Part shown: positions 3,352-55,625 of the stretch, piece after piece | How the letters are laid out: the number at the start of each line of letters is the position of its first letter | Position numbering within the stretch: position 1 is the first letter of the stretch | Translations under genes and position numbers: made by a program | NCBI RefSeq assembly: GCF_004010195.1 | Contig: NC_057719.1 | Location: 30,815,001-30,879,000 of the forward strand | Length of the DNA stretch: 64,000 bases | Source: Chiloscyllium plagiosum | Lineage: Eukaryota | Reading direction: 5' to 3' | Notes under the pieces: model-generated | What the model was told of the DNA's origin: nothing | Databases searched by the model: none | What the model saw: the letters and a program-made list of their open reading frames with translations, nothing else

Positions 3352-3885
3352 AGAGAGTGAGGACTGCAGATGCTGGAGATCAGAGTCGAAAAGTGTGATG
3401 CTGGAAAAGCACAACATCCAAGGAACGGGAGAATCAACGTTTCGCACATAAGCCCCTCATCAGGAATGTGGGGGTGGGTGTTAAGGGGACTGAGAGATAA
3501 ATAGGAGGGTGGGGATGAGGCTGAGGGGAAGGTAGTTAGGAAGGCAATAGATAGATGCAGATGGGTGATGGTGATAGTTTGGAGCAGAAGGTGGAGCGGA
3601 TAGGTGGGAAGGAAGATGGACAGGTGGGACAGTTCAAAAGGGCAGTGGCGAGTTGCAGGGTTGGATCTGGGATGAGGTGTGGGGAAGGGAGATAAGGAAA
3701 CTGATTAAATCGACATTGATCCCGTGTGGTTGGAGAGTCCTGAGGCGGAAGATGAGGTGTTCTTCCTCCAGGGTGGCTAGGATTTGGCAATGGAGGAAGC
3801 TCAGGACTTGCACGTTCTTGGCAGAGTGGGAGGGGGAGTCGGAGTGGTCAGACACAGGGCAGTGGGGTTGTTTGGTGCGTGTGCA
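3352..3885 (-). mobile_element. Penelope-like element 3' end (GIY-YIG C-terminus, 3' UTR, hammerhead-bearing terminal repeat)
   Basis: ORF 3634..3855 has EEEHLIFRLRTLQPHGINVD; minus strand 3463-3436 reads CTGATGA-GGGGCTTATGTGC-GAAA-CGTT. Confidence 0.85.
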
Positions 3886-4686: not shown

Positions 4687-5620
4687 CTGGAAAGAGAGGA
4701 CACTTAATGCACAAAAAATCAAATCAAGAATCTTAACAGTGTATGTTATTACTTTAAGACATGTTAGGTGGACAGGGTTGGTTGGCTAGGTGTCATAGAA
4801 AACCTACGAAATTAGCATGAATGTCTGAGCCACCACAGAAAGTTTGAACATTATTTTGTTGTGGTTACAATGGAGTCTCTTAACAATACTGAAACTTGGC
4901 TTTAGTTTTCTATTATGATTGCAATTTAAATTCTTCATTCTTTCAGATTCTTTCCATTTCTGAAGAAGAGTCATTTGACTCAAAATATTCTTGAAGTACT
5001 CTTTCTTTTCACATAGACAACAGAATTGCTGAATTTTTCCAGCTCTCTCTGTTTGTATTCTTCCTTTTAAGATTTCCTTGTCCTGAAATAAGCTATAGTG
5101 CAATTCTAATGTTGCTTAGTTGACAACACATGAAAATAAATGTATTGAATGGTCATAATAATGAATGAATCTGCTCTGAGTAAACAATCAAGATTTAAGC
5201 AGTTATCACCATAATGCTCTATAATGTCAAATTTTCAATATTATTTCAATGTTGACTAGTTAAACCTGAGAATCAGGTCAGTTAAGCAACAGTAATTTTT
5301 AAAAAATAATTTGCTATAATGTTTTACCAAGTGTTTTTAACCATATTATTTATTACAATAAATAATTTAAGTAAAAATGACTGAATAAATATAATAATAG
5401 ACAGAAACAAAACATAAAAGATACTTTATCAATTTTGACTGACAAATGTCCTATAGATATGTATCAATTATTTGGCTGTCAACCTTGTTAAAAGGATGTA
5501 AATATGAAACATAACCATCTTACCGGTCATTAAAAGATCATCAACCTGAAACATTAATCTTGCTTCTCTCCACTGATATTGCCTGACCCCCATTGAACTT
5601 TTCAACTTCTTTTCTAACAT

Positions 5621-6760
5621 TGATAAGGTTTGATAAGGTTCCCCATGGTAGACTACTGCAAAAAATACGGAGGTATGGCATTGAGGGTGAGTTGCAGGGT
5701 TGGATTAGGAGTTGGCTGGCTGGAAGAAGACAGAGGGTAGTAGTTGATGGCAAAGGTTCATCTTGGAGTGCCGTCACTAGCGGTGTTCCGCAAGGATCTG
5801 TTTTGGGACCATTGCTGTTTGTCATTTTTATAAATGACCTGGAGGAGGGGTTAGAAGGTTGGGTGAGCAAGTTTGCGGATGATACGAAAGTCGGAGGAGT
5901 TGTAGACAGTGAGGAAGGATGTGGCAGGTTACAGCGGGATATAGATAAGCTGCAGAACTGGGCAGAAAGGTGGCAAATAGAGTTCAATGTAGCTAAGTGT
6001 GAGGTGATTCACTTTGGTAAAAGTAATAAAAAGATGGGGTACTGGGCTAACGGTCGGATACTTGGTAGTGTGGATGAGCAGAGGGATCTTGGTGTCCATG
6101 TACACAAATCTTTGAAAGTTGCCACCAAGGTAAATAGTTAGGTGAAGAAGGCATATGGCGTACTGGCTTTTATAGGTAGAGGAATTGAGTTCCGGAGTCC
6201 TGAGGTCATGATGCAGTTGTATAAGACTCTGGTGCGGCCGCATCTGGAATATTGTGTGCAGTTTTGGTCGCCATACAATAGGAAGGATGTGGAGGCACTG
6301 GAACGGGTGCAGAGGAGGTTTACCAGGATGTTGCCTGGTATGGTAGAAAGATCGTATGAGGAAAGGTTGAGGCACTTGGGGTTGTTTTCATTGGAGAAAA
6401 GAAGGTTTGGGGTGACTTGATAGAGGTGTATAAGATGATTAGGGGTTTTGATAGGGTCGACAGTGAGAATCTTTTTCCTCGTATGGAGTCAGCTATTACA
6501 AGGGGGCATAGCTTTAAATTAAGGGGGGGTAGGTATAGGACAGATGTTAGGGGTAGGTTCTTTACTCAGTGAGTCGTGAGTTCATGGAATGCCCTGTCAG
6601 TAGCAGTGGTGGACTCTCCCTCATTATGGGCATTTAAGCGGGCATTGGATAGGCATATGGAGGATAGTGGGCTAGTGTAGGTTAGGTGGGCTTGGATCGG
6701 CACAACATCGAGGGCCGAGGGGCCTGTACTGCGCTGTATTCTTCTATGTTCTATGTTCTA
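5621..6760 (+). mobile_element. CR1 LINE, 5'-truncated ORF2 RT plus 3' UTR
   Basis: FDKVPH, SGVPQGSVLGPLLF, KFADDTK, LVRPHLEYCVQFWSP motifs; in-frame stops; (TTCTATG)n tail. Confidence 0.95.
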
Positions 6761-7061: not shown

Positions 7062-7186
7062 GGGTACAAATCACACAACACCAGGTTATAGTTCGACAGG
7101 TTTAATTGGAAGCACTAGCTTTCAGAGGGCCGCTCCTTCATCAGGTGGTTGTCCACCAGTCCAACACCAGTATCTCCAAATCATGA
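7062..7186 (-). mobile_element. PLE terminal-repeat mini-element with hammerhead core
   Basis: Minus strand 7144-7116 CTGATGA-AGGAGCGGCCCTCT-GAAA-GCTA; same terminus as PLE copies at 12408-12520 and 30715-30802; last ~35 bp in opposite orientation. Confidence 0.8.
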
Positions 7187-9345: not shown

Positions 9346-9602
9346 CTATTATTAATTTAATGTATTTTCTGTTCCCTAAGTGTTTATGTTTTTATCTCTT
9401 TTTGTCCTCTGAGCTTCACTGTTATCCCTTTTCTTTAACTTTGAGTCACTATGATATGTAGCTGAGCCCACTTCTTGACCACTTAAGTACTTTCTATGAA
9501 TCTATTTACCTTTTTTGCTTGGACTTTGACCTAGTTCAGAAATCTCTGAAGACAAAATCTTTTTATTCTACTCACCACTTAAATTGCATCATGGTTTATG
9601 GT

Positions 9603-9690
9603 CCGGATCAGCGGCGCTGGAAGAGCACAGCAACTCAGGCAGCATCCGAGGACAGGCAAAATCGACGTTTCGGGCAAAAGCCCTTCATCA
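9603..9690 (-). mobile_element. Young ~85 bp PLE-derived hammerhead fragment with 16-bp target-site duplication
   Basis: CATCATGGTTTATGGT at 9587-9602 and 9686-9701; minus strand TGATGA-AGGGCTTTTGCCC-GAAA-CGTC; CpGs intact. Confidence 0.85.
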
Positions 9691-9975
9691 TGGTTTATGG
9701 TGTCTTGGTTGAAGTTCTGGTCAAACTCCCTATGGATCTCCTTTTTGTCCTTATAGGTAGTGAATATAACTTATCTTCTGGACAAGACCAACAAGTTTCT
9801 GTTCTTTTGTTTACCTCTACTATTGACAGTCCATCACAGACTCCTATTAATGTCCTTGTTTCTTCCTGTAGGTGGTGTGACTACATTCTGAAGTGAACAA
9901 TTCTGATATTCTCTCTCCTCCTTTAGTCAGATTGTGCATATCTTGCACTCCAGTTTAATAACTCAGAGCAACAGT

Positions 9976-11649: not shown

Positions 11650-12245
11650 AAAAGCAGGAGGATTGATTTTAAGAGCCGTGAGGTTATACTGCAGCTCTCT
11701 AGAGCCCTGCTTGGACCACACTTGGAATATTGTGTTCAGTTCTGGTCGCCTCATCATAGGAAGGATGTGGAAGCTTTAGAGAGGGCACAGAAGAGATTCA
11801 CCACAATGCTGCCTGGACTGGAGGGCATGTCTTATGAAAAAAAGTTGAGGGAGCTAGGGCTTTTCTCATTGGAGTGAAAAAGGATGAAAGGTGACTTGAT
11901 AGAGGTGTACAAGATGATGAGAGGCATAGATAGAGTGGATAGCCAGAGACCTTTTTCCAGGGCGGAAATGGCTATCACAAGGTGGCATAATTTTAAGGTG
12001 ATTGGAAGTTTTAGGGGAAATGTCACAGGTAGGTTCTTTACACAGAGAGTGGTGCGTGTGTGGAATGCACTTCCAGCAATAGTAGTAGAGTCAGATACAT
12101 TAGGGACATTTAAACAACTCTTGGATAGGCACATGGAAGTTAGTACAATGAAGGGTAAGTAGGTTAGTTTGATCTTAGAATAGAATAAAAGGTTGGCACA
12201 GTTTCAAGGGCCAAAGGGCCTATACTGTGCTGTACTATGTTCTAT
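11650..12245 (+). mobile_element. CR1 LINE 3' portion
   Basis: PHLEYCVQFWSP, GDLIEVYKMMRG, FFTQRVVRVWNALP; tail tgttctat. Confidence 0.9.
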
Positions 12246-12836
12246 AAGACCATTACATATAGGAGCAGGATTAGGCAAATTGGCCTGACAAGTCTGCTCC
12301 ACTATTTGATCATGGCTGATATGTTTTTCAAGGATATTGTCCTGCCTTTCCCCCATAACCTTTGATCCCTAATCCTAATCCTATCTATCCCTGTCCTAAG
12401 AATACTCATGATTTGGAGATGCCGGTGTTGGATAAAAATCACACAACACCAGGTTATAGTCCAACAAGTTTAATTGGAAGCACTAGCTTTCAAGCACCGC
12501 TCCTTCACCAGGTGGTTGCGGAGGACACAATTGTAAGACACAGAATTTATAGCAAAAGTTTACAGTGTGATGTAACTGAAATTATACATCGAAAAATACT
12601 TTAATTGTTTGTTTATAGTTTCACTTCCTTCATATGTAAATCACAAACCTTTTTTTTAAAAGTTGCATTCTCTGTAACAATTGGTGTCAGCCAGATAATA
12701 TGTTGAAAGTGTTAGCCCCCTGTATTCCCTGTCTGTGCCATATTATTTGACTGATTCTAACCTAAAAAGTGAGTTAACAGAGTCTTACATGGATTCATGC
12801 TGTTTTTGAGCAAAGTACAATGTAACTCTGCAAGTA

Positions 12837-13086
12837 CCAGAGAGTGGTGGCTGTGTGGAATGCTCTGCCACAGGGGGCAGTGGAGGCCCACTCTCTGGAT
12901 TCATTTAAGAAGGAGTTGGATAGAGCTCTCAAAGATAGTGGAATCAAGGGTTATGGAGATAAGGCAGGAACAGGATACTGATTAGGAATGATCAGCCATG
13001 ATTATATTGAATGGCGGTGCAGGCTCGAAGGGCTGAATGGCCTACTCCTGCACCTATTGTCTATTGTCTATTGTCTATTGTCTATT
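12837..13086 (+). mobile_element. CR1 3' end inserted in the PLE
   Basis: QRVVAVWNALP-coding start, (CTATTGT)n tail; interrupts caagtac/aaattcaccc, which is contiguous in the 30370 copy. Confidence 0.9.
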
Positions 13087-13295
13087 GTACAAATTCACCC
13101 ACAAATGTCTATGTATATGTGTGCATGTGGGTTTTGTGTGTGTGTGTGTTGATTATATTGAATGGCGGTGCAGGCTCGAAGGGCTGAATGGCCTACTCTT
13201 GCACCTATTGTCTATTGTCTATTGTCTATTGTACAAATTCACCCCCACAAATGTCTATGTATATGTGTGCATGTGGGTTTTGTGTGTGTGTGTGT
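12999..13295. repeat. ~151 bp tandem duplication spanning the CR1/PLE junction
   Basis: 12999-13149 repeated at 13150-13295 with one substitution and microsatellite-length differences. Confidence 0.9.
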
Positions 13296-15742
13296 CTGGG
13301 GTGGGGGATTGTGAGTGTCTGTGAGAGAGAGTGTATATGTGTGTGTGAGTGTAAAGTAGTCTAAGTCTGTAAGAGGATGCATGTGGGAGGATGTGTGTCT
13401 GTAGGTATGTGTGTGCGTGTCTGTGTGCGTGTCTGTGTATACGTGTGTGCGTGTGTGTGCATTTGTAGGAGTGTCTGTGTGTGTGTATAGTGCAATGGTG
13501 GTCACCTGTAGTGTGAAATGAACCCAAGCTCCCGGTTGAGGCCCTCCCTATTGGTACGGAACTTAGCTATCAGCCTCTGCTCAGCCACTTTTCGCTGCTG
13601 CCTGTCCCGAAGTCCGCCTTGGAGGATGGTCACCCAAAGGTCCAAGGTCGAATGTCCTGGATCACTGAAGTGTTCCCCAACTGGGAGGGAACACTGACGA
13701 TTGTTGTGCGGTGCACATTCATCGTTGCCATCCACACTCTGACACGTCTTGCAGCGCCTACTGTGACAGGGCTGTATGGAGCTGTCCTGAGAGCCGGGCA
13801 GCTTGCTACGAACAATGATCTGTTTGAGGTTTGGCAGTTGTTTAAAGGTGAGCAGTGGAGGTGTGGGGAAGGTCTTGGTGAGGTGCTCATCCTCATTGAT
13901 AATGTGTTGCGGGTCACGAAGAACATGGAGTAGTTTTTCAGCTCCTGGGAAATACTGAACAATGAAGGGTACCCTGTCAGTTGCAGGACGTGTCTGTCTC
14001 CTGAGGAGATCATTACAATTCCTTGCTGTGGCACGTTTGAACTGGCAGTCGATGGGTTGAGCATTGTACCCCGTTCTTATGAGGACATCCCTGAGTACTT
14101 CCAGGTGCCCGTCAAGTTCCTCCTCATCTGAACAGATCCAGTGTACGCGTAGGCCTTGTCAACACAGCCATCCCCTACGGACATCCTCTAGCTAAAGAAA
14201 TATCTCCTCATCTCAGTTCTATAGACCTGTCCCTTCCCTCTGAGTCTGCAGCCTTGGATCCTAGTCTCTCCTATTAATGAAAACATCTTCTCCATGTCCA
14301 CTCTATCCAGGCCTCTCAGCATTCTGTAGTTTCAATGAGATCCCCCTATCCTTCTCAACTCCACTGTGCGCAGGCCCAGAGTCCTCAAATGGTCCTCATA
14401 TGACAAACATTTCATCCCTGAGATCATTCCTGTAAACACCCTCTGGACCACCTCTAAGGCCAGCATGTCTTTCCTTAGATATAGCGCCCTAAGACTACTG
14501 ACCATATTCCAAAAGCAGTCTGACCACAGCCTCAGCAATATATCCCTGTTCCTGTATTCTAGCCCTCTCAAAATGATTGCTAGCATTGTATTTGCTTTCC
14601 TAACTGTCAATAAACCTGCATAATAATCTTAAGAAAATCCTAAATTAGCATTCCTAAATCTCTGTATTACAGATTTCCAAAGCTTTTCCCCATTTAGAAA
14701 GTAATCTATTCCCTCCTTTCTTCCTAACAAAGTGCGTAAGCTCACACAATCCTACTTATTATTCCATCTGCTACTTCTTTGCCCACTCTCCTAGTCAGTT
14801 CAAGCCCTTCTGCAACCACGTTGCATCCTCAATACTATCTATCCCTCCACCTATCTTTGTGCCATTTCAAACTGAGTAAGAATACCTTCAGTTCCTTTGT
14901 CCAGATCATCAATGTATAACATGAATAGCTGTGGTCCCAACATGAACCCCTGCAGAACTCCACTAGTCACTAGCTGGAAAATACCCCTTTATCCCAATTC
15001 TCTGCCTTGTACCAGGATATGCGAGCTAACAATATAGCCAATCCTCTATCCATGCTCCTCATACCACAGGCTCTTACCTTATTTGGCAGCCTCCTGTACA
15101 GCACTTTGTCAAAGCCCTCTGGAAATAACAATAGTTCACAAGTATTGGCTCTTCTATGTCTAATTTGCTGATTACCTCTTCCAAGAATTCTAACAGATTT
15201 GTCAGGTATTACAATCCCTTGACAAAGCCAAGTTATCTCCTTTAGAACCCTGGTGTGTAATCCTTCTGGTCTGGGTAATTTATCCACCTTCAGATCTTTC
15301 AGCCTCCCCAGCAACTTCTCCTTAGTGATGACCATTGCACTCACCTCTGCCCCTAACTCTCTTGAAGTTCTGGTATGCTATTGGTGTATTCCACTGTGAA
15401 GACTGATGGAAAGTACCTATTTTGTTTCCCATTACTACTCCAGCCTAATTTTCCAATGGTCCAATGCCCACTCTTGCCAATCCCTTACCTTTCATATATC
15501 TAAACAAACTCTTGCAATTTTCTTTTATATTGTTAGCTCGCGGATCCTCATATTTCATCTTCACTCATCTAACTCCCAACCCCCCAACCCAGTCCACCTG
15601 CTTATTGGAGACCCCCATGATTATTGTAGTCGTGTTTTTCTTTAAATTACTTTTCTATCTCCTGATTTATTTTCTAACCCACATCCTGAGGACTGCTATG
15701 AGGCCTCTAATAACTCCAACCAAGGTCTTTTTTACTTTATGG

Positions 15743-15948
15743 AGAAAGTGAGAACTGCTGGAGATCAGAGTCGAGGGTGTGGTGCTGGAAAAGCGCAGCA
15801 GGTCAGGCAGCATCTGATGAGCAGGAGAATCAACATCTCAGGCATAAATTCCTCCATTCCTGACGAAGGGCTTATGCCCGAAATGTCGCTTGCCCTGCTC
15901 CTCGGATGCTGCCTGACCTGCTGTGCTTTTCCAGCACCATACTCTCAA
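15743..15948. mobile_element. Palindromic PLE-derived mini-element with hammerhead core and 16-bp TSD
   Basis: Imperfect inverted arms ~15770-15848 / ~15872-15950; plus-strand CTGACGA-AGGGCTTATGCCC-GAAA-TGTC at 15860-15887; CTTTTTTWCTTTATGG at 15727-15742 and 15949-15964. Confidence 0.85.
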
Positions 15949-17719
15949 CTTTTTTTCTTTATGGTTACTCTATCCACAAAGATTCTACACCTTCTGACTC
16001 CATATTTCTTCTTGCTATCGATTTAATTTATTTTCTTTCTAACCAATGCAACCCCACCCCCTCTGCCCATCTGCCTATCCTTTCAATAGAATGTGTATCC
16101 TTGGATATTTAGTTCCCACCCCTGACCTACTTGCAACCACATCTCTGTGGTACCCACAGCATTGTACCTGTCAATTTCAATCTGCGCTACAGGTTCATTC
16201 ACCTTGTTTCATATTTTAGGCAGTACAAGTGTAACACTCTCAGTCTTGCATTGACTGCCGCCTTCTCACAAATGTCCCCTCATCTGCTGTGTCTGAAGTT
16301 AGATTCTTAAGCTGTTCCATACTCTCTATCCTATTACTTGTTCTGGAACCTTTAATACCCTCTCCTGACCTCCCCCCTTGAAATGGTTTAAAGTTCCTGT
16401 GATCTCGATTTGCCCCTATTTGTACCATCAAGTTGTGTACCTCATTCTGAATGCTTCCTGCTCTGAAGATACAAAGCCTTTTAACTTTTTGTCGAGTTTC
16501 TCTACACTTTTATGATTCCTTGGTATGTATGGCATTCACACATTCTGTCCCTTTCGTTTAATTTTCTCGTAACAACCAATCCCATCATTAACCAGCAACT
16601 CTATCTTTTCCTTTCCCTTTGATTTTATAATTTTCCATGTTACTGAACCTGCCCCATACTCCCACTATTTAACTTAAAATCCTATCTGCAGCTAGTTTCA
16701 CTCATATTTAACAATCATAGCTTCACTTCACCAAGACACTTGGTATTATTCCAAGCTCCAAATCGTATCTCACATCTTTTCCACACTGCCAGTCACTTAA
16801 CCATGGTGGGCTTATTGCTACAATAATTGCATGATATCTCAACCTCCATTTCAGCACAAAGAGATTCCACCTAAAGTTTGGATACTGCAATACAGATTGC
16901 TGTCATACAAGCTCAGGCCAATGCCACTCTACAAGCAGATAGCAATATTCAAATAGATCTTCAGGGTGTCATAGGAGTCCGTCAATCTACCCTCCAAAAT
17001 ATTGCGATGACTGCTGAAGCATGATCCTTGGGGAACAGCTCAAACCTGCTCTTCTCAAGACACCAGACCCTTGCCACTTTGCTTGTGCTTTTGCTATTAC
17101 CTTCTCACATTCTGTTCCTTACTGAGGTTCAGGAAGGAGAATTGCTCCCTGGACACAATGCATGGACATGCATCCTAATCCCTTCCCTGTCAGGTGATGA
17201 ATTCTCACTGCAACTCAGCTTGGTGTAAAATTAATTTGGTAGGTTTGCTATCAGCATCCCATTTACTGGGAGGAATCTAAAGGGCCTGTTTAATCTAGTA
17301 TGGTAAAGGACAAGCCTCTTAAATAAGATGCAATTTATTTCATGATATCAACTAGGTCTACAATAATGCTATGATAAAATAAGGCTGTGAGATTTCAATG
17401 TTAGATCTTACTCCTTCAAGCTGTCTGCTGCCTGAGTCCATATGGCAAAATCATGTTTTGTGGTGCTTAATGTACTCCTCAGCATTAACACTTTTAGGTC
17501 CTTACATTCATTTACTGTACTCTCCTCCTTCTCTCATTTATCCTTCTTGGTGCAGTGTCTGTTCATTTTCCAGTCATGTTTGATTCTGAAAGGAAGGGCT
17601 ACTACTGTACCTATGTTGGAGAAACTGGTTGATGCAGAACCCTTGGAGTTAACAAAAGCATTTCAGCAACCGTCACATCACTACCTGCAGATTGTTTAAA
17701 ACTGAAACAGTGATAAAAT

Positions 17720-20400: not shown

Positions 20401-20479
20401 AATATTCAGCTGAAATCAAGCAATGATGCTGGAGACATATCAGACAAAAATTTGGACACTTTGTTCTATACCTTAGAAT

Positions 20480-21100
20480 AATTCAGTCTCAGGGAAGGGT
20501 GCTGAGGGGATGGTTAATGGTAACATCATGTTAGAGGTGGTGGAAATGGCAGAAGATAAGTAATTGAATATGGAAGCCAATGGGATGAAAGATGAGAACA
20601 AAGGGAACCCCATTATTGTTCTGAGAGAGAGTGGAAGGAATAAGAACTGCATGTGAACACAGTCAAGGGCTCAGTTGGGAAGTCTGGTTGAGGGAAAGCA
20701 AAGACATTTCTGTGGCAAGTTGCATCATTACAACAGATGTGACAGAAGAAGTGTGAGAAAGGAATGGAATCCTTACAGATTATGTACTGTGAGAAGGTTT
20801 AGTCAAGGTTGCTGTGGGAGTCAGTGGAGTTTTAGTCATTATTAGTTCATAGTCTAGCATCAGAGATAGATTAAAATAAGATAAGGAAGGGAGGGAAGAG
20901 TCAAAGTGGACTGTGTGAAACTGAGAGGGTGTGGAAGTTGCCAGAAAACTTGATGAAATATTTTAATTCTGACCAAAAGTGGACATGGCTCTGACTGCCA
21001 TCAATATAACAGAATAAAAGTTGACCCAAGGGACCTGAGTAAGTCCGAAGCAAGAAATGTTTGGCATATCCTTCAAAAATGTATGCATAGCTAGAATTGC
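20480..21100 (-). mobile_element. Old Penelope-like RT/thumb fragment
   Basis: SYAYIFEGYAKHFLLRTYSGPLGQLLFCYIDG...ELKYFIKFSGNFH fits PLE RT PSYACLFVGY...RYIDD...NFHP. Confidence 0.8.
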
Positions 21101-24069: not shown

Positions 24070-25682
24070 AAAAGTGTCCATAATACAGAGGAGGAGGAGA
24101 TACTGGGCAGCTTAAAATGAATAAAGGTGGATTAATCCCCAGTACCTGATCAGGTGTATCTCAGAACTTTGTGGGAAGTTAGGGAAGTGATTGCTGGTCC
24201 CCTTGCTGAAATATTTGCATTATCAATAGCCATGGGAGAGGTGCCAGAGGGCTGAAGGTTGGTTAATATGGTGCCATTATGTAAGAAAGGTGGTAAGGAA
24301 AAGGCAGGGAACTATAGATGGGTGAACCTGACATCAGTGGTGGGGGAGTTGTTGGAGGGGATTCTGAGGGAGAGGATTTACATGTATTTGGAAAAGCAAG
24401 GGCTGATTAAGGACCTGATTAAGGACTGTCAATATGGCTTTGTGCATGGGAATCATGTCGCACTAAATTATTTTTTCTTTGAAGAAGTGACAAAGAGGAT
24501 TGATGAAGGCAGAGCAGTGGACGTTCTCTACCTGAACCTCAGCAAGGCATTTGACAAGGTTCTACAAGGTAGACTGGTTAGCAAGGTTAGATCATATTGA
24601 ATCCAGGGAAAGCTAGCCACTTGGATACAAAATTGGCTTGAAGGTAGGAGACAGAGGGTGGTGCTAGAGGGTTTTTTTCAGACTGGAGGCCTGTGTCCAG
24701 TCGTGTGCTGCAAGGATCGGTCCTGAGTCCACTGCTTTTTGCCATTTATATAAATGATTTGGATGTGAGTATAGGAGGTAAGGTTTGTAAGTTTGCAGAT
24801 GACATCAAAATTGATGGTGTAGTAGGCAGTGAAAAAGTTTATTTCAGAATACAACGGGACCTTGATCAGATGGGCTGATGGGATAATTTAGATAAATGTG
24901 AGGTGCTTCATTTTGGTACGGAAAATCAGGGCAGGTTTTATATACTTAATGGTAGGGTTCTGAGGTGGGTTGCTGAAGAAAAGAGACATTGGAGCGCAGG
25001 CTGATAGTTCCCTGAATGTAGAGTTACATGTAGACAGGGTGGTGAAGAAGGCGTTTGGTACACTTGTCTTTATTGGTCAGTACATTGAATATTAGAGTTA
25101 GGAGAACATATTGCAGCAATACAGGACATCGGTTATGCCACCTTTGGAATATTGTGTGCAATTCTGATTTCCGTGCTATTGGAAAGATGTTGTTAAACTT
25201 GAAAGGGTGCAGAAAAGATTTACAAGAATGTTGTCAGGGTTGGACGGTTTGAGCTATAGGGAGAGGTTGAATAGGTTGGGGTTATTTTCCCTGGAGTGTT
25301 GGAGGCTAAGGGGTGACCTTTCGAGGTCTATAAAATCATCGATATGGTGAATGTCTAAGGGCCTTTTCCCAGGGTAGGGGAGTCCAAAACTAGAGGGCAT
25401 AGATTTAAAGATGAGAGGGGAAAGATATAAAAGGGACCTAAGGGTCAAGATTTTCACACAGAGGGTGGTATGTGTATGGAATGAGAGAGGAAGTGGTGGA
25501 CCTTTGTACAATTAGAATATTTAAAAGGCATCTGGATGGATACATGTTTAGGAAGGGTTTAGAGGGATATGGGCCAAATGCTAGCAAATGGGGCTAGATT
25601 AATTTAGGATATCCAGTTAGTATGGGTGAATTGGACCGAAGGGTCTGTTTCTATGCTGTACAACTCTATGACTCCATGACTA
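24070..25682 (+). mobile_element. CR1 LINE ORF2 (RT) and 3' UTR, decayed
   Basis: GNYRWVNLTSVVG, QYGF, SKAFDKV, QGSVLSPLLF, KFADDIK; (CTATGACT)-type tail. Confidence 0.95.
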
Positions 25683-26224: not shown

Positions 26225-27150
26225 GGTTGAGAGTGTGGTGCTGGAAGAGCACAGCATGACAGGCAGCATCCAAGGACCAAGAGAATTGACGTTTCAGGCA
26301 TAAGCCCTTCATCAGGAATGAGGCCTGTGGGCTGGGGGGCTGAGAGATAAATGAGAGGGGGTGGGACTGGGGGGAAGGTCGCTGAGATTGCAATAGGTAG
26401 ATGAAGGTGGGAGAGGAGGTGATAGGTGGGAGAGGAGGTGGAGCGGAATGATGGGAGTGATGATGGATATGTCAAGAGGGCGGTGCTAAGTTGGATGCTT
26501 GGGACTGGGTTAAGGTGGGGGGAGGGGAAATTAGGAAACTAGTGAAATCTGTGTCGTTGCAAGATCCCAAGGTGGAAGATGAGGCGTTCTTCCTCCAGTT
26601 GTCGGGTCGTTAGGGTTTGGCGATGGAGGAGGCCCAGGACCTGCATGTCCTTGGTGGAGTGGGAGGGGGAGTTGAAGTGTTCAGCCACATAGCAGTAGGG
26701 TTGGTTGGTGCAGGTGTTCCAGAGATGTTCTCTGAAACAATCTGCAAATTAGCGTCCTGTCTCCCCGATGTACAGGAGACCACATTGGGAGCAACAGATA
26801 TAGTAGATGACAATTATGGAAGTACATGCAAATTTCTGTTGGCTTTGGAAGGATCCTTTCGGGCCTTGGACTGAGATGAGGGGGGAGGTATGGGCGCACG
26901 TTTTGCCTTCTTGCAGAGGCGGGGAAGGTGCTGGAAGAGGGGTGTGGGCTGTTGGGAGGGGGCGAGATCTGACAAGGGAGTTGCAGATGGAATGGTCTCT
27001 CTGAAACGTTGATAGGGTGGGGAGGGAAATATATCCCTAATGGTGGGGTCTGTTTGTAGGTAATGGAAATGGCAGAGGATGATGCGATGTATATGGAAAT
27101 TGTGGGTGTAAAATGAGAACCAGGTGGGTTCTGTCCTTGTTGCATTGCTT
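26225..27150 (-). mobile_element. Penelope-like element 3' portion (GIY-YIG) with intact hammerhead core
   Basis: VIYYICCSQCGLLYIGETGR...FREHL readable at ~26820-26720; minus strand 26315-26288 CTGATGA-AGGGCTTATGCCT-GAAA-CGTC. Confidence 0.9.
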
Positions 27151-29334: not shown

Positions 29335-30802
29335 GAATGGAGTACAGTGCCCAACTCATCGACTGCCAGTTCTGACGTGCCACAGTAAGGAACCGCAATG
29401 ACCTCCTCAGGAGATAGACACGTGCTGCAACCGACAGGGTACCCTTTGTTGTTCAGTATTTCCCAGGAGCTGACAAACTACGCCATGTTCTTCGTGGCCT
29501 GCAACACATTATCAATGAGGATGAGCACCTCACCAAGACCTTCCCCACTCCTCCACTACTTGCCTTTAAACAACCACCAAACCTCAAACAGATCATTGTT
29601 CGTAGCAAGCTGCCCGGCTCTCAGGACAACTCCATACAACCCTGTCACGGCAGGCACTGCAAGACGTGTCAGAGTGTGGACATAGATACCACCATTACGC
29701 GTGGGGACACCTCCCACCTTGTACATGGCAGGTACTCATGTGACTCAGCCAACATTGTCTATCTTATACGTTGCAGGCAAGGATGCCCTGAAGCATGATA
29801 CATTGGGGAAACCGAGCAAAGGCTACGACAACGGATGAATGGGCACCGCACAACAATCAACAGTCAGGAAGGTTCCCTCCCAGTTGGGGAACACTTCAGT
29901 GGTCCAGGACATTCGACCTCGGACCTTTGGGTGACCATCCTCCAAGGTGGACTTCGGGACAGGCAGCAGCGAAATGTGGCCGAGCAGAAGCTGATAGTTA
30001 AGTTCGGTACCCATAGGGAGGGCCTCAACCGGGACCTTGGGTTCATGTCACATTACAGGTGATCACCATTGCACTACACACACACACACAGATACTCCTA
30101 CACACACACTCACTCACACACAAACAGACAGGCACTCCTATACACACATACACACGGATCCACATGTACACAGATGTGCACACAGACACCCACACACACC
30201 CTTACAGATACACACATTCCCACACTCACACATGCACCCCCTCACAGACTTAAGACACTCTACACTCACTACACACACACACACATACACTTTATCACAC
30301 TGACAACCCCCAACCCAGACAGACACACACACACAGACAAAGACCCACATGCACACACATATCTTGTGGGGTGAATTTGTACTTGTAGGGTTACATTGTA
30401 CTTTGCTCAAAAACTGCATGAATTCATGTAAAACTCCATTATCTCACTTTTTAGACTAGCATCAATCTAAACATCATGGCAGAGACAGAGAACACAGGGG
30501 GCTAACGCCTTCAACATATTGTCTAGCTATCACCTAACCTGAGAATGCAACTTTTAAAAAAAGGTTTTGTGATTTACCTATGAAATAAGTGAAACTATCA
30601 TGGTATTCAAACAGATGAAAGACTTAACAATCAATTTTTCAATGTATAATTTCAGTTACATCACACGTTAAATTTTTGCTATAAATTCTGTGTGTTAGGA
30701 TTGAGCCCTCCAGTATCACCTGATAAAGGAGTGACGCTCTGAAGGCTAGTGTGCTTCCAATTAAACCTGTTGGACTATAACCTGGTGTTGTGTGATTTTT
30801 AA
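29335..30802 (+). mobile_element. Penelope-like element, 5'-truncated, full GIY-YIG domain, CA-rich 3' UTR, degenerate hammerhead
   Basis: PCHGRHCKTC...SCDSANIVYLIRCRQGCPEA*YIGETEQRLRQRMNGHR...PVGEHF...AEQKLIVKFGTHREGLNRDLG; CTGATAA...TGAAGGCTA at 30720. Confidence 0.92.
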
Positions 30803-31082
30803 TTTATGCAGTTAATGATTATGGTTCCCATGCTATCATTGTAACTGCTGGGTAAGATTAGTCATTTTCTGAGAAGTTGTTAAAATGGATTGGATTTTGT
30901 CTTTAATTTTTTTAAAATGGTCTAAAAGGGTTCCTGGGCGTTTTCGGCTATAACTCTGAGGAATGCAAGAAAGATTGAAAAACAAGTTAACCTACTCTAA
31001 TGCCATTGTAATAGACATTCAGCAGGGAAACACACCTAACTCTTTTGCAAAAGAGAGGATAAAATTGCTCAGAGAACTGGTT

Positions 31083-31268
31083 GAAAATGTGTTGCTGGAA
31101 AAGCGCAGCAGGTCAGGCAGCATCCAAGGAACAGGAGAATGATTCCTGAAGAAGGGCTTATGCCTGAAACGTCGATTCTCCTGTTCCTTGGATGCTGCCT
31201 GACCTGCTGCGCTTTTCCAGCAACACATTTTCAGCTCTGATCTCCAGCATCTGCAGCCCTCACTTTCT
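31083..31268 (+). mobile_element. 186-bp hairpin PLE-derived mini-element with 15-bp TSD
   Basis: Perfect 59-bp inverted repeat 31082-31140 / 31175-31233; CTCAGAGAACTGGTT at 31068-31082 and 31269-31283. Confidence 0.92.
31146..31173 (+). ncRNA. Minimal type I hammerhead ribozyme core
   Basis: CUGAAGA-A-GGGC(UUAU)GCCU-GAAA-CGUC: CUGANGA box, stem II, GAAA box, palindromic ACGU in place of stem III, GUC cleavage triplet. Confidence 0.75.
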
Positions 31269-31619
31269 CTCAGAGAACTGGTTATATGGCACACGAGAGG
31301 ATTCCAACTTCCAGGCTGGGGGTACAATTGATTTCCATGTCTCGCTTATTTGTTCATCCTCTTGGAATCAATGTATGGCTATGTACATAGCACCCAGGAA
31401 AGAAGGTATTTTGCATTTGTGATTCACAGAATCTTTATAGTTACATTGGTGAGCTTAGAAACATAAAAGGTATCGTTAATATGGAGTAAGGTTGATTTCA
31501 TGGTCACATTCAATCATGGTCCCTGACGTCAAGGATTCTTTCAAATTGATTTTCATTTACATCCATGTAGTCTTTGAAAATCAATGAAGTTGTTGCAGAG
31601 CAATTGTGACTTATCTAGA

Positions 31620-33290
31620 CATGCTTGGGATGGAGAATCAAATTTGTGAACTGGTTTAGGGAGGCTCACATGAGGCATCTATCCATCCAAGTTAAGCAGA
31701 CCTTTTACCTTTCATCATCTTGGAGTAAAGTGCCTTGCATTCATGGTTCAGCCTGCATGTCTGTACATACCCTTCACAACACACCATTGTACCTGCCTCC
31801 AAAGCAATGCTAATTTATCTGTTGAAGCTGACAAATATTCAGAAGTCACCAATGTTTAAGGGCTTATACTTAAAGGCACTTCACTCATTATAAGCCAGAA
31901 ACTCCACTTCTTCACTCATTATAAGCCAGAAACTCCACAACAGCTCCAGCCACAAGGATCTGTACTCATTATTAGATTACTAGTCCAGAGACATTATCTC
32001 TGCACCACCACCTCCTCACCATGCTGACAGTCTTCTAATGCTTCCTGGGCACTGCTCTGCCTGTTCACTGTCTAGGCAGTGCTCACCACCTAGCAGGGCT
32101 ATTCATGCTCATCAAGTGTCCAAGTGCACATTCCTACCTCAGTCAACCCTTCTCTTCCTCTCACTGCAAGAAAACCTGGCGCATAACAGGAAGGAGAAAG
32201 TCCAGATTGGTGGAAGCCTTTCTGATCATTACATCTTCATCACATCTGAGGAAGATGCAGTTCAATTGGCTGGTGAGGATTTGAGAGAGTGGAATAGCTG
32301 AAGCGAGTGAGCAACATTGTTGCTTACTCTTTTCGGAAGTGGAATCACTCTTACACACTCCTCCACATACCAACTCCCTTATCAACTAACTTGCTTTTTT
32401 CTCTTCTACAACATAAGCAGTGTTCCTCCAGTAAAATGAAAGTGCACACAGTGGCTCCCTGTACAAGCACCTCTTAAAATATTGTTTGGGATATTTTACC
32501 TCCATCAGCACAGATATTGTCACCTTCATGACTATCCTGACTAGAGTAGACCAGGGGATGCAATCTGCTGACCACATCATTGACACATGTCTGCAGCTAC
32601 TGGAGAAAGAAATACCTGAGGACTCTGATGTTCAAGGACATCCAGAGACTAGGCACCTGCCCAGTCCCACCCATACGATGCCATTCTACTCAGCCATAAG
32701 TCACATGGTCAACCTGCAAAGACAGATCCGGCAGAGATTCTGAAGGCCTTCACGACACTACAGTGAAGGATGGAACAGTCCATCTATCTTCAGCCTGTCC
32801 TGGTGCAAGTACATGCAAATGCTTAGCTGCCTCCTTGGAATCAGTGGCTGTCATGTTAGAAACTCATGTCCAGTCGAGCCTGAGTTCAGTGGCTGTCAGG
32901 AATGTGTTCAGGCCTGCATCATTGCTCTAGCCATGAGTAATCAATGTCAATGTCAAAATAAGAGTGGAATGAGGCACCTTGGCTTCACTCCAGGTTCCTC
33001 TGCTTCTCAAAAAGACAAGTATGTGCCATCAGCCATGTACAGACAGCAGAACGAACAGACAGAGAACCTGGGAGTTTCATCTCAGTGCACTCTACGGGTG
33101 ACACACCCTGTACCTTTCCTCAATCAGTAATTCCATTGCCTGCAGCTGGTTAGGCCAAGGTGGTGTACCTGTATTTCTGTAGGAGATTCTCACCATCATA
33201 GGATGCCCTGCAAAGCCAGGCCACAATTAATGCCAAAAGTATCTTCATAATCACCAGGATTTACCATTCAGCAGGTTCCATCCACCTCAG
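31620..33290 (+). mobile_element. Decayed Harbinger-associated Myb/SANT-like gene
   Basis: ENLAHNRKEKVQIGGSLSDHYIFITSEEDAVQLAGEDL after a pyrimidine tract resembles the KxAHNRxExxxTGGG...LTxxEE segment of NAIF1/MSANTD-like Harbinger partners; downstream coiled-coil-like remnant. Confidence 0.5.
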
Positions 33291-34708: not shown

Positions 34709-36830
34709 TGTAGTGATTGGGACCAGGTTGACCTGATTGACTACAAGGGTCTTGATTGGGGTTGTTAACCTGGACGAATTAGGAAAGCCTTGACTGACTA
34801 ATGTAACTAGGAGATTAGAATCTCCTCAGTTGAGGACTGACTCAAAGCTGGCTGGCCATAGCCAGTGTACTGCGGGGGAAGGAAGTTCCCTGGACAAAAA
34901 TATTAATATATAAAACCAGGAGATTATAGTCCCCTAAATTGAGGACTGACTCCAAGTTGGCTGGCAATAAAATATATATAATCAGGAGATTAGAATCTCC
35001 TCAGTTGAGGACTGACTCTGAGCTGGCTGGCCACAGCCACTGTACTGTGCATTAGTAAATAAAGTGAGACTTGGTGACAGGACCCGGCTGTTATTTCAGT
35101 GGGAATGGGAGAACAGGTCGCACCTGAGGAACATTAATTTACAACTGTCATCTTAGAGTTGTGGTAAACATTTCTGGCATCATCCCTCTACTTGGGAAGC
35201 TTGACTCATTTGACCCTGCTGTCAAAGACGGGGTCCAGTATGTTGAGAGAATGCAATATCCTTTTTAGGCAAATGACATTGGGGCAGATGAAAAGCAATG
35301 AGTGATTCTTCTGACTGTGCGTAGACCTGCTGAATTTTTGGTTACAAGGCGCTTGGGTTTCCCAGAGGCACCTGACACTAAAACCTTCAAAGGGTTGCCA
35401 GTGTTGATTAAGGAATATTATGACCACAAACTTCCTCAAATCCTGAGATGCTATCGGTTTTATACGGAAGGTTTGGCAGTCATATTTGGTGTGAGGAAGT
35501 TCCACCAGTACCTCTACGGATGGGAATTTATCATAGTCACAGATCACAAACACCTGCTAGGGTTACTGAAGGAAGGTAGTGCCACTCATAGAATTCCGTT
35601 AGAATTCAGCATTGGGCCCTGATTCTTGGCTCGCACAAGAACAAGGTAGAACACCATCCAGGAAGCCAAGTGGCTAATGCCTCCCACTAGCTGATACTAC
35701 ACTGGTGTTGCGTCCCCTGGAATAGTCCATTTTGGTTTTAAACTTTCCTGCCACCCTTCCAGTCATCACGGACAATATCCAGCTGTGAACACAAAAACAT
35801 TCTGTCCTAGCAAAATGGTGGTACTGGGGTAACGGAAAGGCCATTGCAAACAGGATTGAAACTTTTTTGGACCTGGCGAGATGGGATCACGTAGAGTACA
35901 GCATATTACTATGGGGAACAAAGGTGCTTGTCCTGAGTAAAGGTTGTCGCCAGGTACTCGTCGAACTCCACCAGGGGTCTCCAAGATGAAGATGCTAGCA
36001 AGAAGCTATGTCTGGTAGCCAAGGTTGAATGCCAACATAGCCATGTTGGTGGGGCAGTGCCCAGGTTGCCAACAAGGACTAAAATTGCCATTAGCATCAC
36101 CTCCCACATTTGTGGGCTTGACCAGGTAAACCCTGGACTCTGTTGCTTGTCGTCTATGCCAGTCCTTTCATGGGTTTAATGTTCCTGGTCATTGTGGATG
36201 CCCATTCAAAGTAGTTAGATGTGCATAACGTTTGGTCAGCAAACTCAGGGATGATGACTGAGAAGCTGCGAGCATTGCTAATGATACTCGGATTCCAGGA
36301 AGTACTGGTCATGGACAATGGGATGTCATTTACCAGCAGGGAATTTGAATATTTCCTAAAGTCCAATGGCATTTGGCATTAAAGGACAGCTCCATACTAT
36401 CCATCATCCAATAGTCTAGTGGAAAGAATGGTTGAAGGCAGGCTTAAAGAAGCAGCCTACAGCATCAATTGAGATCAAACTGTCCCAGTTCCTGTTAATA
36501 GGACCACCCCACACACAATAATAAGGATAGCTCCAGCCGAGTTGCTGACGGGGAGGAGTCTCCACACCAGGTTAAACCTGATATTTACACAGCTGGGGGG
36601 GAAAATGGTAGCAGGAATGCCAATGCCAGGCAAATTCTTCCTCTAAGCAAGAGAGACAATTTAATTCAGGGGATAAAGTTTGATGCTGGAGCCATGGAAA
36701 TAGCCTTGTATGGATACAAAGTGAGATTGATGTGAGGTCAAGTCTCATGACTTACAAAGTTCGGGTAGCTGATCCAATCCTAAACAAACATGTGGATCAC
36801 CTGAAAACCATTATCTTGCAAACAGGGCAG
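34709..36830 (+). mobile_element. Internally deleted Ty3/Gypsy element: 5' LTR (34709-35098), gag N-terminus fused to RNase H, integrase; no 3' LTR seen
   Basis: TG...TTATTTCA LTR with AATAAA; PLLGKLDSFDP...YVERM...ANDI gag; EGLAVIFGVRKFHQYLYG..FIIVTDHK RNase H; KMLARSYVW, FLVIVDAHSK*LDV, DNGMSFTSREF, RTAPYYPSSNSLVER integrase. Confidence 0.9.
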
Positions 36831-37419: not shown

Positions 37420-37795
37420 AGTTCCTCAGTCTCCATTGAGTCTGTTTTGATAAAATCAGCTTCTTTAAGGGGCCTCTAAATTGTCCACCTTCTTCCTAAA
37501 CCAAGGATTCCTCACCACTGTGGTTGACAGGGCCTTAGCCGTGTTCAACCTATCTCCCAGACTTCAGCCACCACTTATTGCCTTCTCTCCCACAACAGTG
37601 ATAGGGTCATCCTTGTCCTCATTTACCATCCTCCCTGCATCCACATCCAAAGATGCATTAGCTGCTATTTCTGCCACCTCCTGCAGATGCTATCACCACA
37701 CTCTTATTCCCCTCCCCTCCTTTGCCAGCATTCCACAGGGACTGTTCCCTCCAGGATACTTTGGTCCACTCCTCCTCCATTCCACTCATGCCCAC
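37420..37795 (+). mobile_element. Old PLE thumb/linker fragment
   Basis: STFFLNQGFLTTVVDRAL...DRVILVLIYHP, colinear with the reverse complement of 61200-61400. Confidence 0.62.
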
Positions 37796-42477: not shown

Positions 42478-44632
42478 TGCAGGGCAAGAGTTATAGCTGG
42501 GGGAAAGGCAATTACGATGTGATTAGGCAAGATTTAGGATGCATCGGACGGGGAAGGAAGCTGCAGGGGATGGGCACAACTGAAATGTAGAGCTTATTCA
42601 AGGAACAGCTACTGCAGGTCCTTCATAAGTATGTACCTGTCAGGCAGGGAGGAAGTTGTCGAACGCTGGAGCCGTGGTTTACTAAGGAATTTGAATCTCT
42701 TGTCAAGAGGAAGAAGAAGGCTTATGTTAGGATGAGATGTGAAGGCTTATTTAGGGCACTTGAGAGTTACAGGTTAGCCAGGAAAAACCTAAAGAAAGAT
42801 TTAAGAAGAGCCAGGAAGGGACATGAGAAGTCATTGGCGGATAGGAAAACCCTAAGGCTTTCTATTGGTATATCAGGAATAAAAGAATGACTAGAGTAAG
42901 ATTAGGGTCAATCAAGGATAGTAGTGGGAAGTTGTGCGTAGAATCAAAGGAAATAGGGGAAGTACTAAATGAATATTTTTCATCAGTATTCACACTCGAA
43001 AAAGACAATGTTGTCAAGGAGAATGCTGAGATATAGGCTACTAGACTAGATGGGATTAAGGTTCATAAGGAGGACATATTAGCAATTCTAGAAAGTGTAA
43101 AAATAGATAAGTCCCCTGGGCTGGATGGGATTTATACTAGAATTCTCTGGGAAGCCAGGGAGGTGATTGCCGAGCCTTTGGCTTTGATCTTTATGTCGTC
43201 ATTGTCTACAGGAATAATGCCAGATGACTGGAGGATAGAAAATGGTGTTCCCTTGTTCAAGAAGGGCAATAGAGATAACCCTGGTAATTATAGACCAGTG
43301 AGCCTTACTTTGTTTGTGGGTAAAGTGTTGGAAAAAGATTATAAGAGATAGAATTTAGAAAGAAATAAGTTGATTAGAAAGGAATAAGTTGATTAGGAAT
43401 AGTTAACATGATTTTGTGAAGGGTAAGCTGTGCCACAAACCTTATTGAGTTCTTTGAGAAGGTGACCAAACAGGTGGATGAGGGTAAAGCCATTGTGTGT
43501 GGTGTATATGTATTTCAGTAAGGCATTTAATAAGGTTCCCCACGGTAGTCTATTGCACAAAATATGGAGGCATGGGATTGAGGGTGATTTAGTAGTTTGG
43601 CGGGCTGAAAGAAGACAGAGGGTGGTGGTTGTTGGGAAATGTTCATCCTGGAGTTCAGTTACTAGTGGTGTACTGCAAGGATCTGTTTTGGGTCCACTGA
43701 TTTTTGTCATTTTTTAAACAACCTAGATGAGGGTGTAGAAGGATGGGTTAGTAAATTTATGGATGACACTAAAGTCGGTTGAGTTTTTGGTAGTGCAGAA
43801 GGATGTTGTAGGTTACAGAGGGACATAGATAAGCTGCAGAGCTGGGATGAGAGGTGGCAAGTAGAATTTAATGAGGAAAAATGTGAGGTGATTCAATTTG
43901 GAAGGAGCAACAGTAATGCAGGGTATTGGACTAATGGGAAGATTCTTGGTAGTGTAGATGAGCAGAGGGATCTCAGTGTCCATGTACATAGATTCCTGAA
44001 AGTTGCCACCCATGTTGATAGGGTTGTTAAGAAGGCATATGGTGTGTCAGCCTTTATTAGTAGAGGGATTGAGTTTCGGAACCGTGAGGTCATGCTGTAG
44101 CTGTATAAACTCTGGTACTGCCGCACTTTGAGTATTGCGTACAATTCTGGTCACCGCATTGTAGGGAGGATGCGGAAGCCTTAGAAAGGATATTTACTAG
44201 GATGTTGCCTGGTATGGAGGGAAGGTCTTACAAGGCAAAGCTGAGAGACTTGAGGCTGTTTTTGCTGGAGAGAAGAAGGTTGAGAGATTGACTTAATTGA
44301 GACATATAAGATAATCAGAGGGTAGGATAGGGTGGACAGTGACAGCCTTTTTCCTTAGATGGTGATGGCTAGCACAAGGGGGCATAGCTTTAAATTGATT
44401 GATATAGGACAGATGTCAGAGGTAGTTTCTTTACTCAGAGAGTATTAGGAGCGTGGAAGACACTGCCTGCAACAGTAGTTAACTCGCCAACTTTAAGGCC
44501 ATTTAAGTGGTCATTGGATAGACATATGGACAAAAATGGAATAGTGTAGGTTAGGTGGGCTTCAGATTGATTTCACAGGTTGGCTCAACATCGAGGGCCA
44601 AAGGCCCTGCTCTGCGCTGTAATGTTCTATGT
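42478..44632 (+). mobile_element. CR1 LINE ORF2, ~2.1 kb, frameshifted
   Basis: DKSPGLDGIY, PGNYRPVSLT, FSKAFNKVPH, QGSVLGPLIF, KFMDDTK; tail tgttctatg. Confidence 0.95.
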
Positions 44633-44887
44633 AAAACCATGCTGACTATCTCTGATTTAATCTATGTCTCTCCAATTGCAGATATATTCTGTCCGTCAGA
44701 GTTCTTTCTTTTTAATAACTTCCTCACGCCTGAAGCTAGAGTGACTGGGCTGTAAATTCCAGATCTACTCCTTCTCCTCTTTTTAATTGGGATACAATGT
44801 TACCAGTCCTCCAATCCTCTGGCATCTCCGAGAGGAGTTGAAAATCACTACTAGGGCCCCTGATATCTCCTCCAACAGCTTTGGATC

Positions 44888-45286
44888 AGGTTATTGTTCA
44901 ACAGGTTTATGTAAAATTGCAAGCTTTTGGAGCACTACTTCTTCATCAGGTGAAGTGGAGAGAGGCGCACAGTCACAGAATATGTTGGCAGAGAGATAGT
45001 GGCAAGATAATTCCGGGTATTTAAGAATGTCAACAGAATGTCAGCAAAAACTTCTTATTCAGCTGTCAACACTCTAATCACACTATTTGTACTCACCTGT
45101 TGGCATTCTTAAATACCCGGAATTATCTTGCCACTATCTCTCCATTTATATATTCTGTGCCTATGCACCTCTCTCCACTTCACTTAAAGATGGAGTAGCA
45201 CTCTGTGATTTTAAATAAACCAGTGTCTATAACCTAATGTCATGTCACTTTGTCCACCCAGTCCAACACTGGCATCTCCACATCAT
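44888..45286. mobile_element. Palindromic PLE-derived mini-element with decayed hammerhead
   Basis: Inner arms 44991-45036 / 45098-45143 match at 45 of 46 nt; minus strand CTGATGA-AGAAGTAGTGCTCC-AAAA-GCTT; ends with the PLE terminus ccagtccaacactggcatctccacatcat. Confidence 0.8.
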
Positions 45287-45666
45287 AAGATCCTGGGATA
45301 CATTTTTTTCAAGCCTGCATGCATGTATTTATCCACTTTTAGTCATAGAATCATAAATCCCTACAATGTGGAAAGAGGCCATTCAGCCCATTGACTCTGC
45401 ACTGATCCTCCAAAGAGGATTCCTCTCAGACTCAGGCCTACTCTATCCCTATAACTTGATGTTTGGATAACTGGGGTTGTTCTGTACTTTCGTTGCTTTC
45501 CTAATTCCCTTTATAAGATCCTCCTGCACTTTATTTATTGCACATAATGTATATGGATTATCGCCTGTGGTTTAAATTGGGTTGAAGAAGCCTTTGTCTG
45601 TTTGCTCCTTCTTCACAGGAGACCTTCTTTCCCCAAAAAACACCTTTTTTCCAGAGAAGGTCCAGT

Positions 45667-54371: not shown

Positions 54372-55625
54372 TAGAACATTAGAATGTAAGAACCAGGAGC
54401 AGGAATAGGCCATCTGGCCCTTTGAGCCTGCTCTGCCACTCAATTAGATCATGGCCAATCTTTTCGAGGACTCAGCTCCACTTACCTGCATTTTCACCAT
54501 AGCCCTTAATTCCTTTATTTTTCAAAAAAGTATCTACCTTAGCTTTAAAAGTGATTACTGAAGTAGCATCAACTACTTCCCTGGGCAAGGAATTCCATAG
54601 ATTAACAACCCTTCTACCAAAATGTATGACTTCACATTTAGTAACATTGCATTCCATCTGGCAGATCTTTGCCCATTCACTCAATGTATCTCCATTCCCC
54701 TGCAAAGTTTCACAGTCCTTTGCACACATAACTCTGCCACTCATCTTAGTGTCATCTGCAAATTTTGACACTATACAAGTGGTCCTCAACTCCAAATCAT
54801 ATATATATAAATTGTAAATAATTGTGGTCCTAACACTGATCCCTGTCACTAATTGCCAGCCAGAATAGTACTCATTTATCCCCACTCTTCGCTTCCTGTC
54901 AGTCAACCAATCCTCTATCCTTGCTAATACTCTATCCCTAACACCACACATCCTTATCTTATGCAGCGACCTCATGTGCGGCACCTTGTCAATGGCCTTT
55001 TGGAAATCTAGGTACACTACATCCACTGGGTCCCTGTTGTCCACCTTGCTTGAAATGTCTTCATAGAATTCCAAAAGATATGTGAAGCATGACCTGCCCT
55101 TCGTGCACCCATGCAGCGTCTGTACAACTGGAGAATTTCTTTCGAGATGTCTTGCTATTTCTTCCTTGGTAATAGACTCAAGCATCAGAGGTTAAGCTCA
55201 CTGGTGTTTAATTCCCCATCTTTGTCTACTTCCCTTTTTAAACAGTGGTGTCACATTTGCTATTTTCCAATCTGCTGGGACTGCCCCAGAGTCCAGCAAA
55301 TTTTGGAAAATTACCACCAGTCCACCTGCTATTTCTCCTCCCATCTCTTTTAGTACCCTGGGAGGAGAATTCTATCAGGGCCAGGAGTCTATCCTTAGCT
55401 CTATTAGCTTATCCAACACTAACTCTTCTGTAATAATATTTGTTTCCAAGTCCTCACCTACTTCGTCTCTTCATCACTTACTGGCATGTTATTAGTATCC
55501 TCCACTGTGAAGACCGATGCAAAGTACCTGTTCAATGCCTCAGCTATTTCATCATATCACATAACTAACTTCCCTTTCTCATCCTCTGAAGGACCAACAT
55601 TTACTTTAACCACTCTTCTTCGTTT
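54372..55625 (-). mobile_element. CR1 LINE ORF2 with in-frame internal deletion
   Basis: ORF 54472..55185: YLDFQKAIDKVPH, KFADDTK, then CEVIHFGR joined directly to RVVNLWNSLP. Confidence 0.92.

Follow-up and report, generated by a model that had tools for sequence, protein, structure and literature searches.

A 186-bp hairpin with a hammerhead motif at a shark locus: a probable 5'-truncated integration product of an endonuclease-bearing PLE

Described PLE insertions and hammerhead-bearing elements

An inverted 5'-truncated copy, a tail of 30-40 bp on one side only and a target-site duplication (TSD) are typical of Penelope-like element (PLE) insertions, as described in the available text of three papers (PMC3846280, PMC8557442, PMC8969392). 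The insert reported here was found in a 64,000-nucleotide stretch of Chiloscyllium plagiosum DNA (hereafter, the window) and resembles the complex insertions of endonuclease-bearing (EN+) PLEs in having a head-to-head inverted partial copy at its 5' end, a one-ended tail, a TSD and a 5' truncation. It differs from these insertions in that its 186 bp hold neither an ORF nor a second pLTR and in that the inverted and direct parts abut as a 152-bp hairpin. The TSD of the insert is 15 bp in length as compared to 8-10 bp in the rotifer EN+ PLE cases described in the available text. The minimal hammerheads of metazoan PLEs are, according to the accessible sections of PMC4209133, mostly solo motifs of truncated PLEs, with some arranged as opposite-strand pairs; sharks are not mentioned there. 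The motif in the insert shares with these its core boxes, an extra base 9/10.1, the lack of helix III, a palindromic 15.2-16.2 and a short helix I, but has a stem II of 4 bp with a G10.1-U11.1 pair and a stem I whose 3' strand is taken by one of the hairpin arms.

Two further systems bear a likeness to the insert. For Poseidon of Anolis carolinensis (i.e. PAc), reverse transcription is reported to begin internally, at a pair of neighbouring sites that delimit the tail, both strands of the target are cut and extended by the PLE protein in vitro, and the hammerhead cuts only in the presence of protein and is dispensable for insertion (PMC11167929). PAc and the insert have in common two 3' ends that lie a tail-length apart with the hammerhead upstream of both, and the cutting and extension of both strands by PAc accounts for the polarity of the insert. 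However, PAc belongs to another clade (Neptune being suggested here by a linker motif) and the PAc work, in the sections available, does not reconstitute an inverted junction. Non-LTR retrozymes are described as head-to-tail tandem repeats, two or more of which hold a complete motif (bioRxiv 10.64898/2026.07.22.740005; PMC7229834, both in excerpt). Those of animals are like the insert in being small and non-coding, with a type I hammerhead, a kinship to PLE pLTRs and a long TSD. Retrozymes give rise to circular RNAs from their tandems, whereas the insert is a head-to-head fold-back that carries a single minimal motif and has a junction peculiar to this copy. No papers on shark PLE hairpins were found in the literature searched, which covered few subscription journals; Repbase-type libraries may list the family.

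Structure and age of the insert

The insert extends over 186 bp (31083-31268) and is flanked by a 15-bp direct repeat (31068-31082 and 31269-31283; 15/15 match). A perfect inverted repeat (31082-31140 and 31175-31233) has 59-nt arms of 100% complementarity and a spacer of 34 nt; 58 of the arm bases are inside the insert, as T31082 is common to arm and TSD. The original prediction had described a self-contained hairpin element with a hammerhead ribozyme in its loop, and all of the coordinates that it gave for the hairpin and repeats were correct. Among the perfect inverted repeats of the window with arms less than 600 bp apart, the 59-nt arms are the longest, with a runner-up of 39 nt. By chance, the arm would be expected ~2e-27 times and a 15-bp repeat at both ends ~1e-6 times, and the RNA fold of the hairpin had a z of -17.7 (0/200 shuffles), indicating that the structure did not arise by chance. 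An assembly artefact was ruled out using two sequencing runs of organism A: both junctions were present in run X3 and the left junction in run X7, whose coverage has a gap at the right one.

The left TSD copy (31068-31082, plus strand), whose T31082 lengthens the arm by one base, is followed by a 58-bp inverted, tail-less and 5'-truncated partial copy of the pLTR (31083-31140, minus strand). This copy equals the sense positions 31175-31232, is without the ribozyme core and stands head to head with the adjacent sense part. The outer end of this arm coincides with the tail-less end of the family. Family ends were found to pile at 31269 (292, 330 and 109 contigs; 727 RNA reads) and, as loose ends, at 31235/31236; these two piles are 33-34 nt apart and match the two ends of a PLE 'tail'. 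A single junction base, G31141 (plus strand), agrees neither with a continued arm nor with the upstream sequence of the family, the sister copies having a C upstream of 31142. It is the centre of a 4-bp mini-palindrome (31137-31140/31142-31145) and was presumably added without a template. The sense part (31142-31268, plus strand; 127 bp) is the 3' end of a pLTR with homology to the terminal parts of PLE bodies, and it includes the right arm (31175-31233). It is 5'-truncated, beginning at 31142 where sister copies reach 0.4-0.9 kb further upstream. Outside the right arm lies the 35-nt tail (31234-31268, plus strand), which is present at the right end only. The right TSD copy (31269-31283, plus strand) begins with C31269, a base that also fits the family end.

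An exact 15-bp TSD had been claimed for this locus, and the claim was confirmed by an empty site with one target copy in a related organism (i.e. organism B). One contig of run X12 is contiguous from 31067 to 31269 and lacks 201 bp, corresponding to the insert plus one TSD copy, indicating that the 15-bp repeat is a true TSD and fixing the limits of the insert. No empty-site piece was observed for organism A among the selection of pieces listed for runs X3 and X7. The flanks of organism B differ from the window at 13 of 530 positions (2.5%), with one additional 7-bp gap. At the divergence of the A/B split, the probability that a 58-bp arm pair would still be identical is ~0.24, and thus the perfect arms do not demonstrate a very recent insertion. 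The insertion postdates the A/B split and is common to several organism A samples. Precise loss in organism B via slippage between the TSDs is possible, though less parsimonious than gain in organism A. An insertion as recent as was first proposed is therefore upheld as far as the split from organism B is concerned, whilst its presence in two further runs of the same species and the uninformative arm identity leave 'very recent' unsupported.

The sense part contains a minimal type I hammerhead motif (31142-31178, plus strand) that has the descriptor features given in the available text of PMC4209133 and a predicted cut at 31173/31174. The stem I strands are located at 31141-31145 and 31174-31178, the core at 31146-31152 and 31166-31173, and stem II at 31154-31157/31162-31165 (i.e. 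31154-31165), all on the plus strand. We take the core positions C3-A9 to be 31146-31152, followed by the extra A31153, with G12-A15.1 at 31166-31169, then C31170-G31171, U16.1 at 31172 and C17 at 31173. The conserved core, the extra base 9/10.1, the palindromic 15.2-16.2 and the NUH cut site were all present in the insert, and no hammerhead core was found on its minus strand. The closing pair of stem II (G31154-T31165) is G-U and not the conserved G10.1-C11.1. T31165 is a minority letter in the family, with C accounting for 81% of the aligned depth, and the pair has decayed to G-U in this copy. The core had been predicted to be intact; this is correct for the core letters, which make up a minimal hammerhead, but not for the closing pair of stem II.

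An Rfam search of the window produced four matches at E values of up to 1, none of which was to a hammerhead family and all of which were below the gathering score. The bare core pattern had 8 matches in the window as compared to 3.8 expected (4/100 shuffles), which is not significant alone. With Rfam silent and the bare core not enriched, it is the full descriptor together with the family context that supports the ribozyme call. Folding of the loop region alone was no better than for shuffled sequences (z of -0.95, 0.42 and 0.74), and the stem II covariation in an 8-row alignment was uninformative, being reached in 265-370 of 500 shuffles. In the predicted fold of the insert, the left arm takes the 3' strand of stem I, and the cut-site triplet is paired with 31141-31143. 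An active-like fold, if imposed on the insert, would cost 6.6 kcal/mol (fraction 2e-5) versus 2.0 kcal/mol in the sense part alone, so that predicted folding agrees with the earlier proposal of a ribozyme clamped by the long stem. Minimal PLE hammerheads are reported, in the sections available, to show no cleavage as monomers and weak cleavage as dimers (PMC4209133; review, PMC6765202). The presence of a single motif, the lack of stem III, the decayed G10.1-C11.1 pair and the predicted loss of stem I to the long arm suggest that the hammerhead is most likely an inactive passenger of the pLTR that would not cleave.

Family identity and the junctions of other copies

BLAST searches within the window identified six other loci of the insert's family. 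Each of three of these six loci (3349-3467, 26228-26319 and 60649-60747), all on the minus strand, forms the 3' end of a longer element whose upstream DNA contains decayed RT-thumb, Cys-linker and GIY-YIG coding sequences (tblastn E values of 3e-52, 5e-34 and 3e-12). The corresponding PLE bodies, each ending in an insert-like module, are at 3349-3882, 26228-27147 and 60649-61580 (minus strand). A frame at 26542-27036 had 14 protein matches among 241 candidates, the best two being from the bamboo shark Chiloscyllium punctatum with 63% and 59% identity and carrying GIY-YIG and RVT_1 signals. Four of these protein matches were scanned with Pfam: GIY-YIG was detected in all four, above the cut-off in two, and an RVT_1 signal below the cut-off was detected in three. 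The direct Pfam match of the window frame to GIY-YIG was weak (E 0.092). Together, the sister copies and protein matches indicate that the insert is the end module (i.e. the pLTR end with its hammerhead, and the tail) of an endonuclease-bearing PLE that encodes an RT with GIY-YIG at the C terminus. The PLE origin originally proposed, for which a 3' extension matching the PLE terminus had been cited, is thus substantiated by sister copies that run into RT/GIY-YIG coding DNA. A C-x4-C-x2-C linker is visible in three homologues (P0002, P0009 and P0010) and degenerate in the window frames; judged by this one motif, the clade is probably Neptune. The Cys linker motif is common to Nematis too, according to the context available from PMC8557442.

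The family of the insert is very abundant. At an identity of at least 90%, three public DNA runs had 53,313, 64,445 and 64,196 contigs on a 711-bp stretch, nearly all of them on the insert. Exact-pattern scans for the family in metagenome contigs and viral contigs found 0 loci.

Fold-backs account for two of the seven family loci in the window, and their junctions differ. The second hairpin (15727-15964, minus strand) is older than the focal insert and consists of a tail-less inverted arm and a tailed sense copy with a 16-bp TSD containing one mismatch. Its 95-nt arm spans the whole hammerhead (core 15860-15887, plus strand), its sense copy starts inside stem II and a short filler is present. 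The outer end of the arm is at the equivalent of 31236 in this 15.8-kb copy and at 31233 in the focal insert. A sense-only stub of ~85 bp from a related subfamily (9587-9701, minus strand) has a perfect 16-bp TSD, the last bases of which overlap the hammerhead core (i.e. microhomology), and the 26-kb copy has a tail-less end and an 11-bp TSD with one mismatch. Contigs on the hairpin exhibited 233 joints, 15 of which were listed; all 15 differ from one another and from the focal junction. The listed joints have arm inner ends at 31099-31133 and sense restarts at 31141-31224, and each was found in 1-3 contigs per run, with 4 of the 15 occurring in both organisms A and B. Several have a contig depth of 20-279 as compared to 3-10 for single-copy flanks, depth being no measure of copy number. 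The high-depth and two-organism joints may represent recurrent or multiplied junctions, or high-copy words in short contigs. These other junctions, in the second hairpin and in the 15 listed joints, indicate that the insert is most likely a one-off integration product. Many family contigs depart from the focal copy at 31142, with only about ten further upstream letters common in the consensus, and this divergence is consistent with a clustering of 5' ends just ahead of the hammerhead and not at its cut site.

Other repeats were also present in the window. A second PLE family is represented by two truncated bodies (29335-30801, plus strand; 12405-14158, minus strand) with linker and GIY-YIG frames, a CA-rich repeat and a decayed hammerhead; the former body ends ~270 bp upstream of the focal insert. 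Two hammerhead-bearing insertions of a second PLE family (44887-45289 and 7062-7184) are arranged head to head with a tail on one side, the arm with the core being on the minus strand and the tail only on the plus strand; in the larger one the arms are long and diverged and include a perfect stretch of 39 bp. Further decayed fragments of PLE coding sequence, lacking any obvious end module, were detected by tblastn at 20456-21092 (minus strand) and 37507-37776 (plus strand). LINE-type RT fragments (RVT_1) are located at 5587-6749, 11658-12253, 24633-25339, 43519-44640 and 54475-55191, and an RNase H-like fragment of an LTR/DIRS-type element at 35302-35619. A perfect 29-bp tandem duplication with 31-bp spacing (31879-31938) lies 600 bp downstream of the insert. 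A Pfam search of 150 of the 234 stop-to-stop frames of at least 65 aa in the window gave three matches, all RT-related, and no host exon.

Origin of the hairpin

Very probably, the insert was dead on arrival: it is what an endonuclease-bearing PLE (probably Neptune) left behind after extreme 5' truncation, with the hairpin formed at integration and the hammerhead carried along as a passenger. Of the two readings initially put forward, this corresponds to the 'extreme truncation with fold-back', which is supported by the inverted tail-less copy, the tailed sense copy and the heterogeneity of the junctions. From the observed polarity and ends of the insert, we infer a scheme of priming. Among mechanisms, we lean, with some hesitation, towards integration from two primers. 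The GIY-YIG endonuclease would nick both target strands, 15 nt apart. One cDNA would be primed by the 3' end of the bottom strand at the distal start site (that of the tail) and would stop after 127 nt; the other, primed by the 3' end of the top strand at the proximal site ~35 nt upstream, would stop after 58 nt. Their head-to-head joining would add a single untemplated base. Against this mechanism, the arms are identical even at family-variable sites, for which fold-back on one cDNA accounts at least as easily.

Such a fold-back is a possible, if less probable, source of the arm: the insert would again be a one-off truncated PLE, with an arm that one cDNA made by priming itself or by switching template. 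The perfect identity of the arms and the mini-palindrome of 4 bp around the junction base favour this route, and self-priming has been argued from junction palindromes at PLE inverted junctions (PMC3846280, in the text available). However, the register at the junction is only ~2 nt, and fold-back, unlike priming at two sites, fails to predict that the outer end of the arm lies at the alternative 3' end of the family (31233, or the 31236 equivalent in the 15.8-kb copy). It is quite unlikely that the arm is instead a run-off cDNA of the 3' cleavage product of the hammerhead, primed from the second target strand. The inner end of the arm, at the 31175 equivalent, is one base short of the predicted cut (31173/31174), but in the 15.8-kb copy the arm reads past the cut, no joint among the 15 listed has an end there and the listed loose-end piles include none at 31174-31175. 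Should the inner ends of arms pile at this position across the genome, fold-back stubs of sharks would record, as fossils, that PLE minimal hammerheads cut in vivo and that cut RNA serves as a template in two-primer integration. A 33-bp deletion between two short repeats was also considered as the origin of the junction; it would need two events.

The other reading in the original prediction, a non-autonomous unit of the retrozyme kind, is unlikely, as is a SINE-like equivalent; either would have the entire hairpin transcribed and then mobilised in trans by PLE RT/endonuclease. The cis-acting end and tail are retained, pLTRs alone are described as sufficient for mobilisation in trans in rotifers (PMC3846280, in excerpt), and some joints of other copies have a high contig depth. 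Nevertheless, the ribozyme is single and non-tandem, with a core on the plus strand only and no tandem copy, and the 58-bp stem would be expected to hinder reverse transcription. The junctions vary between copies, and constant boundaries were not found among the window copies and the 15 listed joints; heterogeneous breakpoints had been named at the outset as the observation that would speak for one-off truncations. In RNA library X21 (single-cell poly(A)), 1,960 of 12,955,460 records aligned, none of them in either flank, and no pile of read starts or ends was observed; as a single library covered to ~2% of its reads, this is weak as absence. The X21 reads derive from other family copies, and no transcription of the focal locus, and hence no dsRNA, was seen in this one library. 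A search of sequencing runs for the insert sequence listed no RNA run. It is highly improbable that the insert is a MITE/fold-back DNA transposon or a microRNA precursor, short as it is and furnished with inverted repeats and a TSD. The weak Rfam matches to MIR528 and mir-3127 scored 30.7 and 29.8 bits, far under the gathering scores of 62 and 82. The right arm is not terminal, with 35 nt of tail outside it, so that terminal inverted repeats are not present at both ends, and a MITE/fold-back transposon is excluded by homology of the sequence to the end of RT/GIY-YIG elements.

The truncated PLE insertion described here is an ordinary product of PLE integration, real and exact. As a single locus it matters little: the PLE family has left very many such stubs, and their architecture has already been published. 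Its value is as a clean and dated example (i.e. with an exact TSD, the empty site of a relative and unmutated arms) for studying the inverted junctions of PLEs. It is also useful for asking whether the hammerhead cut shapes PLE junctions, a question that the abundance of the family in sharks makes one of pure counting.
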